From a phage: 51,676 nt of DNA. A model generated the notes under the pieces. That model saw only the letters and a list, made by a program, of their open reading frames with translations. It was not told the origin of the DNA and searched no databases. Both the position numbers and the translations under genes were made by a program. Below are positions 1,628 through 2,329 of the stretch, in pieces (position 1 is the first letter of the stretch; every line of letters starts with the position of its first letter). Location: the sequence record PZ534514.1, one strand, 5' to 3'.

Positions 1628-2329
1628 ATGTCAGATATGACTTTACTCCCTACTGGTGGTGGTTTTGGTGGCGAAGCTGGCTCTGCTGGACTTGGTGGTG
1701 CTGTTGGCGGCCTGATTGGGTCATGGTTTGGTAACGGCTTTAATGGTCGTGGTGGTTATGGTGGTGATGGTGCGGCTGTTGCTGTCGGTGCTAACGCTGT
1801 TCTTGATGGTATTAATAACATCCAGACAGGAGTAAACAACCTGGGGCTGCAAACTCTGCAAGGCCAAAACTCAACAAACCTTGCCGTTGAGCGCTCCGCT
1901 GCATCAACCTTTAACGGCATTACCAGCCAGAATACGCAAAACCTGCTTGCATCGGTGCAAGGTTTCGCCGGACTGAATACCGCGATTGTTAGCGGTACTA
2001 ACCAGACGGTTGCTGCGATTAATGCTGCTGATGTTAATGCTCTTGAGCGTTCCTATCAGGCGCAGATTGCAGCGGAGAGATGTTGCTGCGAGACTAACCT
2101 GAACATTGAGCGACAAGGTAACGCAACGCGAGATCTGATTCGTCAACAGTTTGCTGATTCTCAGGCTGTTTTGATTTGCGATATGAAAGCTCAGTTGCAG
2201 GAAGCGCGTTTTGCTCTTTCTCAGGCAAACCAGACCGCCGCACTGAATTGCAAAATCAACCAGGTAGAGCAATTGGTAAACTTCAAATTGCCTACTCCTC
2301 AGACTCCGCCTACTGGCTGTTGCGGCTGA
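1628..2329 (+). CDS. Glycine-rich protein with Cys clusters (CCCE, C-terminal GCCG); function unknown
   Basis: ATG at 1628 preceded by aaagagga; ORF-track first M at 1580 lacks an RBS. N-terminal about 60 aa is Gly-rich. Confidence 0.65.
   Translation: MSDMTLLPTGGGFGGEAGSAGLGGAVGGLIGSWFGNGFNGRGGYGGDGAAVAVGANAVLDGINNIQTGVNNLGLQTLQGQNSTNLAVERSAASTFNGITSQNTQNLLASVQGFAGLNTAIVSGTNQTVAAINAADVNALERSYQAQIAAERCCCETNLNIERQGNATRDLIRQQFADSQAVLICDMKAQLQEARFALSQANQTAALNCKINQVEQLVNFKLPTPQTPPTGCCG

Follow-up and report, generated by a model that had tools for sequence, protein, structure and literature searches.

g1 (1628-2329, plus strand), the gene directly downstream of the lateral tail fibre gene of a T1-like phage, is a real gene whose 233-residue product belongs to an uncharacterised and widespread protein family. 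It opens a conserved cassette of four genes, g1-g4, located at about 1500-3460 of the stretch of DNA analysed here (record PZ534514.1, 51,676 nucleotides, hereafter the window), and this cassette is a mobile accessory unit that favours the end of the tail module. What is such a protein doing behind a tail fibre gene? Is it a part of the fibre, or the lead product of a separate system? An earlier reading of the DNA (the original prediction) had suggested a fibre accessory or receptor-binding partner, or a secreted or acylated factor.

The window is a complete Hanrivervirus genome (Drexlerviridae, T1-like), circularly permuted and opened inside the lateral tail fibre gene. The region examined shares 94-98% identity with Hanrivervirus phages, among them grams, KarlJaspers and pSf-1, and joining the ends of the window gives one open reading frame (ORF; 50815-51676 plus 1-1448, start near 50.9 kb) with the N-terminus MAIYRTGQASMDAQGY, matches to fibre PHROGs and a Peptidase_S74 chaperone domain at its end (Pfam). 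As this ORF spans the joined ends, the window must be a circularly permuted whole genome, and the 393-residue ‘fibre gene’ at 267-1448 is the C-terminal part only. The fibre ORF ends at 1448, so g1 was rightly placed directly behind it. GenBank has nineteen records under the name ‘Campylobacter phage’ (host C. jejuni), including MG065669, MG065675 and MG065637, that match the Hanrivervirus region at megablast level (97% for the two listed), and in one of them g1 is the same as that of the window (100% identity); these records, which match a region of E. coli/Shigella phages, look like mislabelled or contaminant genomes.

The g1 gene and its cassette

An alternative in-frame ATG at 1580 would give a product of 249 residues, but the homologues all start MSDM or MTDM and a good ribosome-binding site, AAAGAGGA, sits 8 nt upstream of the ATG at 1628, which fixes the start there and confirms the 233-residue product originally called. 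The composition reported for it is also largely right. Glycine accounts for 21 of the first 60 residues (20 glycines fall within residues 9-48), and both the CCCE (152-155) and the C-terminal GCCG are present, the seven cysteines being at 152-154, 184, 208 and 231-232. The claim of Asn/Gln/Thr-rich repeats survives in part: the middle of the protein is rich in Asn, Gln, Thr and Ala, but true internal repeats were rejected, with segment-against-segment alignments reaching z ≤2.1 against shuffles.

Which signals surround the gene? The original prediction had g1 bracketed by two terminators. The upstream one is canonical and closes the lateral tail fibre gene (1463-1495, plus strand; a 10-bp stem at 1463-1486 with seven G-C pairs, followed by a T-run). 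The downstream one is less clear-cut. A hairpin between g1 and g2 (2339-2366, plus strand; AAGCGCC...GGCGCTT at 2339-2358, then TTCATC) has a short U-tract and was scored by the terminator scan on the minus strand only, though many relatives, near and far, have a GC-rich hairpin with a T-run just behind the stop codon of g1 (JenP2, PY100-like, L024, L026, L027, L029, L035, L049 and others). It is probably a leaky terminator, an attenuator or a 3' stabiliser, and its recurrence suggests that g1 would be made in excess over g2-g4. The region between the fibre terminator and g1 (1500-1627, plus strand) would hold the promoter and leader of the cassette, with a -10-like CATACT at ~1559-1564. Within the leader (~1559-1627) the segment ACUCUUUGUCGUA pairs with the Shine-Dalgarno region ACGUCAAAGAGG (CUCUUUG/CAAAGAG), and different but complementary sequences form the same pairing in Sasha (CUCCUGU/ACAGGAG), JenP2 (GAUUCCCCA/UGGGGAAUC) and eiAU (CUCUUUGUGU/ACACAAAGAG), with z between -2.2 and -3.8 against shuffles (regions compared: L003 5229-5298, L062 4728-4805 and L061 4750-4826). 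An inner hairpin of the TGTAAC..GTTACA type lies between the two arms. No Rfam family matches the leader, which may be a translational control element.

The protein itself matches PHROG 9288 from end to end (E 1.8e-123), and it is to this family, which has no assigned function, that g1 belongs; g2, g3 and g4 fall likewise into PHROGs 9157, 8329 and 7239. There is no relative above threshold in Pfam, NCBIfam, PADLOC or among PDB sequences, and for g1-g4 PADLOC gives no match at E up to 1, which removes a known anti-phage defence or counter-defence protein from the candidates. The admission in the original prediction that the protein was not recognised was fair, as PHROG 9288 is the only match among curated families, structures and defence models. 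The family comprises 229 clusters at 90% identity and 112 representatives at 50% identity, none with an informative name; most sampled representatives have 200-290 residues and many shorter fragments are also listed. Two BASEL records carry the label ‘putative sugar-binding protein’, which is unsupported by every search run and for which the BASEL paper gives no rationale. Several other identities were considered and rejected. A tape measure protein is suggested by phrog_167, which matches g1 at E 0.01 over the Gly-rich part only, and the real tape measure protein is annotated elsewhere in the near-identical KarlJaspers. For a holin there is no match in Pfam or PHROGs and no adjacent endolysin in the window phage (an endolysin lies nearby only in L067 and L068). 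A spanin is at odds with the acidic N-tail of g1 and with KarlJaspers, which is annotated with holin, endolysin and u-spanin elsewhere; as these lysis genes are annotated separately, g1 is not part of the lysis cassette. A colicin or pesticin finds no PDB chain at E up to 10 and no cytotoxic domain in Pfam, NCBIfam or PDB, and g2-g4 match no immunity family.

The other three genes follow on the same strand. g2 (2379-2702) encodes 107 residues with a His/Asp-rich N-terminal part, a C-terminal helical pair and an invariant MExxE; it weakly resembles the all-alpha nucleoside triphosphate pyrophosphatase fold of MazG/PRA-PH (E 8e-4, which misses the Pfam threshold), but without conservation of the second acidic motif. 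g3 (2717-3208) encodes 163 residues forming an alpha/beta core and then a charged disordered tail; AlphaFold2 models the core with a predicted local distance difference test (pLDDT) of ~85-90 over residues 11-130, and no structural analogue was found. g4 (3195-3452; 85 residues) overlaps the end of g3 in its frame, and where other lineages have a gene of similar size in this place, it falls into different sequence clusters. Apart from the borderline MazG/PRA-PH match of g2, searches of g2-g4 in Pfam, NCBIfam, PADLOC and PDB sequences returned nothing above threshold. The cassette end is separated from the convergent ssb gene by a GC-rich hairpin flanked by T-runs, AAAGGGGC...GCCCCTTT (3441-3461, scored on the minus strand), which is probably a two-way terminator ending both transcription units. 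His/Asp-rich tracts recur in g2 homologues (window 2379-2520; L003 6034-6200; HHHHHYHHGHH in Sasha) and relatives of g1 end in Cys/His-rich sequence, a hint that the cassette may handle or use a metal ion.

Distribution, position and loss of the cassette

How general is this arrangement? Behind g1, on the same strand, there always come genes of ~100, ~165-200 and ~70-90 residues (g2, g3 and g4), and the order g1-g2-g3(-g4) is kept where g1 identity has fallen to 30-40%, in Sashavirus, Yersinia phage P400, Nonagvirus JenP2, Edwardsiella phage eiAU and PY100-like myoviruses, as well as in many IMG/VR and metagenome contigs. Altogether the cassette is found in at least eight unrelated lineages, including Hanrivervirus, 9NA-like, Nonagvirus, eiAU, PY100-like, T5-like and metagenomic phages. 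In the most distant group (L022, L030, L037-L060; IMG/VR) a g1-like gene is followed by a gene for a protein with a BclA_C (C1q-like) domain and has genes for small proteins rich in Cys, Gln or Arg/Gly/Tyr around it, and in some contigs these lie just upstream of scaffold and capsid genes.

The operon is usually located at the distal end of structural or tail-fibre clusters of virulent phages. In about ten lineages it stands immediately behind a tail fibre, tip or chaperone gene (Hanrivervirus, JenP2, eiAU, the T5-like polluks with a decayed copy, L006, L014, L023-36, L027, L067/68 and L069), within the structural operon in the case of L069 and just upstream of an endolysin gene in L067 and L068. 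Other settings are found as well: after the major head gene (L011, L021), between terminase and portal (Sasha), divergent and upstream of the head operon (P400), or, in PY100-like phages, as a lone island on the opposite strand among genes annotated as hypothetical proteins, methylase and SSB. T1 cor and T5 llp likewise lie at the end of the tail module. In T1 and SH6 the ssb gene leads directly to the fibre gene and the cassette is absent, while lateral fibres are present (PMC5238451). The absence from T1 and SH6, the opposite-strand island of the PY100-like phages and the frequent null alleles of g1 together mark the unit as accessory and mobile. In operational terms it is a moron-like cassette, with flanking terminators, presence or absence in close relatives and occurrence in unrelated phages, and with a putative promoter of its own.

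Is g1 needed by the phages that carry it? In JakobBernoulli (L002 4179-4883) it has a stop codon in place of Q78, and the same Q78stop is found in Fulano1. Fragments of 106-125 residues occur in Fulano1, SeppeHuegi (where the gene is in two pieces) and Skure, one cluster is an in-frame g1-g3 deletion fusion found in 11 contigs, and in T5-like Salmonella phages many copies of g1 are broken, remnant or unannotated. The clusters of g2, g3 and g4 are nearly uniform in length. Judged by these sequences, g1 is repeatedly inactivated while g2-g4 stay intact, and it is dispensable. The loss in JakobBernoulli would be a late event: of about 34 nucleotide substitutions that separate its g1 from that of the window only four change the protein, which points to purifying selection on intact copies and, in JakobBernoulli, until recently.

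The same allele bears on the fibre. JakobBernoulli is the sole Drexlerviridae phage of the BASEL collection that plaques robustly on K-12 with restored O16 antigen, which its authors relate to use of the O-antigen by the lateral fibre (PMC8594841). That a phage with Q78stop in g1 still plaques robustly on this host is an indirect argument that the fibre can work without g1. The identity of a fibre protein or chaperone was rejected on these grounds, together with the presence of fibres in T1 and SH6, which lack the cassette, and the lack of homology to structural fibre proteins or chaperones in Pfam and PHROGs. What remains of the suggested fibre accessory or receptor-binding partner? The recurring neighbourhood speaks for it; against it, the cassette is a four-gene unit of its own behind a strong terminator, and it is also found far from fibre genes, in the PY100-like phages, P400, Sasha and the two contexts behind a head gene.

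Predicted architecture of the g1 protein

Structure prediction, one of the checks proposed for this protein, gives a simple picture. The AlphaFold2 model, built as a monomer with a 21-sequence alignment, shows residues 1-57 as disordered, followed by a single helix over residues 58-218 (~160 residues; pLDDT 72-84 over 140-215), and a BFVD structure search with this model found nothing. From its N-terminus onwards the protein consists of an acidic tail (1-16), a glycine zipper of the form (GxxxG)3 (~17-38), a linker of Gly and aromatic residues up to ~57, the helix and a Pro-rich tail ending in GCCG. As read from the sequence, the zipper glycines are G23, G27, G31 and G35, with L22, V26, L29, I30, W33 and F34 on the opposite face. 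A plain transmembrane segment occupies this position in 25 of 185 relatives, distant ones among them (Kyte-Doolittle mean ≥1.6, up to 2.3), for example GIIWLILILLIL and WIILFLIFGMFGW. Family-wide, the N-tails before the zipper or transmembrane position have a mean of 2.2 acidic and 0.4 basic residues. How does the suggested secreted or acylated factor fare? g1 has neither signal peptide nor lipobox, and on reading the ORF list no ORF with a lipobox was noticed within or next to g1 (no formal scan was made); for acylation of such Cys clusters we know of no bacterial precedent. An N-terminus that inserts into a membrane, on the other hand, is supported by the transmembrane segments of the relatives.

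The rod is an unusual helix. Over residues 58-218 charged residues make up 13%, and N, Q, S and T together account for 38% of it. Its hydrophobic periodicity is 3.65-3.7 over residues 58-140, and a real 22-residue repeat, QGFxGLN, is seen only in distant relatives, where it indicates a hendecad-type helix whose length varies by whole units. The CCC is kept in 268 of 283 full-length relatives (95%), and many relatives have a Pro-rich stretch followed by C-terminal Cys/Gly(-His) clusters such as GCGCVCGA or CHNGCHGCC. Within the close group, loss of C208 goes along with loss of the terminal CC.

Two likenesses to known membrane-active proteins deserve comment. Glycine-zipper channel formers, such as the N-terminus of VacA and the Gly-zipper families of Pfam, share with g1 the (GxxxG)3 on one face of a helix. 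g1 differs from them in matching no Gly-zipper model of Pfam at E up to 1, and a channel activity of g1 is putative. The other likeness is to the influenza fusion protein. A family profile built from 31 diverse members matches HA2 residues 1 to ~90 in the PDB, that is, the fusion peptide and the start of the coiled coil, at E 4e-4. The match depends on residue order, as 0 of 1000 block shuffles of H1 HA2 reach the real profile score, and it is weak and dependent on the HA subtype, since H3 HA2 scores only 11 bits. Both proteins appear to have a Gly-ridged amphipathic peptide (GLGGAVGGLIGSWFGNG against GLFGAIAGFIEGGWTG) running straight into a long helix. g1 is without the second heptad region, the C-terminal anchor and the free N-terminus generated by cleavage, and its periodicity is 3.65 rather than 3.5. 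The identity of a class I fusion protein was rejected, with one unbroken AlphaFold2 helix, no C-terminal hydrophobic segment and a periodicity of 3.65 to 3.35, not 3.5. By design rather than descent, the HA2 likeness is most likely convergence on a membrane-active arrangement.

A proposed envelope role weighed against its rivals

We tentatively favour, with a probability of about one in three, a reading in which g1 is a late, abundant membrane-inserting rod with an accessory role in the host envelope, and not a component of the virion fibre. It is the lead product, and probably the most abundant one, of a self-contained, horizontally mobile operon. The anatomy and conservation of g1, and the operon with its mobility and dispensability, are observed; membrane insertion of this particular member, its topology and oligomeric state, the expression ratio and the biological role are predictions. 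Late in infection g1 would enter the cytoplasmic membrane of the host, its N-tail facing outwards, self-associate there through the glycine-zipper helix and oligomerise along the rod, an uninterrupted helix of ~24 nm with a periodicity of 11 residues. The orientation with N-terminus out and C-terminus in is favoured by the acidic N-tail and by the metallothionein-like Cys/His tails of the relatives. The Cys clusters might lock or switch the oligomer by metal binding or redox state, and g2-g4 would act as small, low-copy partners. What would this do for the phage? g1 could block the entry of competing phages, or it could tune membrane integrity or the timing of lysis; the genomic position, mobility, dispensability and conservation of g1 across genera favour roles of this kind. 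Moron-type or early superinfection-exclusion membrane proteins (HK97 gp15 and T4 Imm, with T1 Cor and T5 Llp for position) come from small genes and act on the envelope, and they resemble the present case in being accessory, patchily distributed and dispensable, with their own signals and a place at the end of the tail cluster; g1 differs in having no sequence relation to them, in belonging to a four-gene unit and in being a large rod and no lipoprotein. A receptor-specific blocker does not fit, as g1 stays 60-98% identical across phage genera which, according to the BASEL receptor typing, use different outer-membrane receptors.

Several observations weigh against this interpretation. The AlphaFold2 model has low confidence overall (pLDDT 59) and covers the monomer only. 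The zipper of the window g1 is weakly hydrophobic, with a mean of 1.18 over a 17-residue zipper window, and the best 19-residue hydrophobic window of the whole protein (1.12) falls in the rod, so stable membrane integration of this member is not assured; the positive-inside signal is weak too, consisting of one Arg after the zipper. Low charge and much N, Q, S and T in a rod are characteristic of fibrous proteins of virions or of places outside the cytoplasm, and uncharacteristic of coiled coils within it. g2-g4 give no clue to a role, and the recurring position behind fibre genes on the late-gene strand fits a structural role equally well. A search of the literature turned up neither experiments nor expression data nor a virion proteome for a member of the family: the eiAU paper is without mass spectrometry, SH6 and Sf11 lack the cassette, and in the Sfin-1 text covered here, whose virion data are of low specificity, no g1-like protein is named (whether Sfin-1 carries the cassette was not checked).

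It is this low-charge, fibre-like rod and the frequent position after fibre genes that keep two rivals alive. Could g1 be a dispensable appendage of the virion after all, a coiled-coil whisker or fibre accessory that is stapled by disulfides after release and assembled with the help of g2-g4? We consider this unlikely. The composition is fibre-like, the hairpin after g1 would suit a subunit made in excess, the neighbourhood of tail fibre, tip and chaperone genes is as described above, and distant relatives have the BclA_C gene next door. Side fibres are often dispensable in the laboratory, and the terminal P-T-G-C-C-G recalls the GPCCG cystine knot of collagen III. However, the N-terminus is the best conserved part of g1 and the host virions are unrelated (T1-like, T5-like and 9NA-like siphoviruses and a PY100-like myovirus), which makes a common docking site implausible. 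Nor does an appendage account for the relatives with a strongly hydrophobic transmembrane segment, for the opposite-strand island of the PY100-like phages, for the missing homology to fibre or chaperone families, for T1 without the cassette or for the robust plaques of JakobBernoulli Q78stop on a host with restored O-antigen (PMC8594841).

The other rival, which strikes us as rather improbable, keeps g1 in the envelope and turns it around. With its N-terminus in and its C-terminus out, the ~24 nm helix would cross the periplasm, held together by intermolecular disulfides made by DsbA, and its Pro-rich tip would reach the outer membrane; acting on the outer membrane or the peptidoglycan, it would aid lysis or mask envelope components. 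The length roughly agrees: 161 residues at 0.15 nm each come close to the width of the periplasm, ~21-25 nm. The low-charge N/Q/T-rich rod and the Pro/Thr-rich tails look extracytoplasmic, the joint loss of C208 and the terminal CC is what a disulfide predicts, and the cassettes of L067 and L068 lie just upstream of an endolysin. Rz, for its part, is stapled by intermolecular disulfides, and the i-spanin Rz, TolA and TonB have, as g1 would, a single membrane helix at the N-terminus; they share with it a spacer, helical or Pro-rich, that is about as long as the periplasm is wide, and possibly linking cysteines. g1 differs from these proteins in sharing no homology with them and in lying outside the lysis cassette. 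Its acidic N-tail, which lacks a basic residue, is the opposite of a signal-anchor, and the vicinal CCC and the metallothionein-like tails of the relatives (GCGC, CHxGCHGCC) suit a reducing compartment better. KarlJaspers, moreover, is annotated with a complete set of holin, endolysin and u-spanin elsewhere, and no gene for a lipoprotein partner was noticed in or beside g1 on reading the ORF list. Two further readings are less likely than either of these. Might g1 act only after the cell has burst? Held inactive in the cytoplasm in reduced form, possibly bound by g2-g4, it would be freed by phage lysis and attack other cells from without by means of a head like that of a bacteriocin or a fusion peptide, with the cysteines as a possible oxidation switch on release. 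The fusion-peptide-like pattern is in keeping with this, the position in the late cluster and the terminator after g1 resemble lysis-dependent toxin operons, and the N-terminus MSDMTLLPTGGG with its disordered Gly/aromatic stretch recalls a TonB box and the unstructured translocation domains of pesticin and colicins. That likeness of the Gly-rich head is compositional; no colicin or pesticin chain matches at E up to 10 and no killing domain is recognisable, relatives with a true transmembrane segment would be membrane-bound in the producer, and the benefit to a virulent phage is unclear. We regard a released factor as quite improbable. Least probable of all, we think, is a cytoplasmic scaffold in which the low-complexity head and the rod self-assemble into filaments or a condensate, like intermediate-filament proteins: the head-rod-tail layout, the GGFGG/GYGG motifs, an N/Q/G-rich composition like that of prion-like domains and a probably abundant product would agree with it, but the transmembrane segments of the relatives are not explained, the rod is very low in charge and no relative among known cytoskeletal families was found in Pfam or PDB.

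To return to the membrane-inserting rod with an envelope role, what would it mean? The interest of g1 lies in its conserved, mobile four-gene context and in a membrane-active design, more than in the fibre gene next to it. If it were a plain structural add-on, it would be of local interest only. A bolder proposal, and a doubtful one as yet, is that g1-g4 form an undescribed phage accessory system, passed by horizontal transfer among many virulent phages of enterobacteria and of bacteria from the gut and the environment, with a fusion-peptide-like glycine-zipper rod as effector; its oligomer would be locked by a thiol or metal switch, and it would remodel or breach a bacterial membrane, in infected or in neighbouring cells. 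If true, this would be a new route to superinfection exclusion or lysis control in the infected cell, or to an attack on neighbours after release. The cassette is carried by phages in wide use as models and as candidates for therapy (several of the BASEL collection, T1-like phages of Shigella and E. coli, 9NA-like and T5-like phages of Salmonella and PY100-like phages of Yersinia) and is annotated as ‘hypothetical’ everywhere, and natural null alleles, such as that of JakobBernoulli compared with KarlJaspers, make the function of g1 directly testable. As a conserved, mobile and dispensable unit with a candidate membrane rod, it may represent an unknown layer of the conflict between phages, or between phage and host, at the bacterial envelope.

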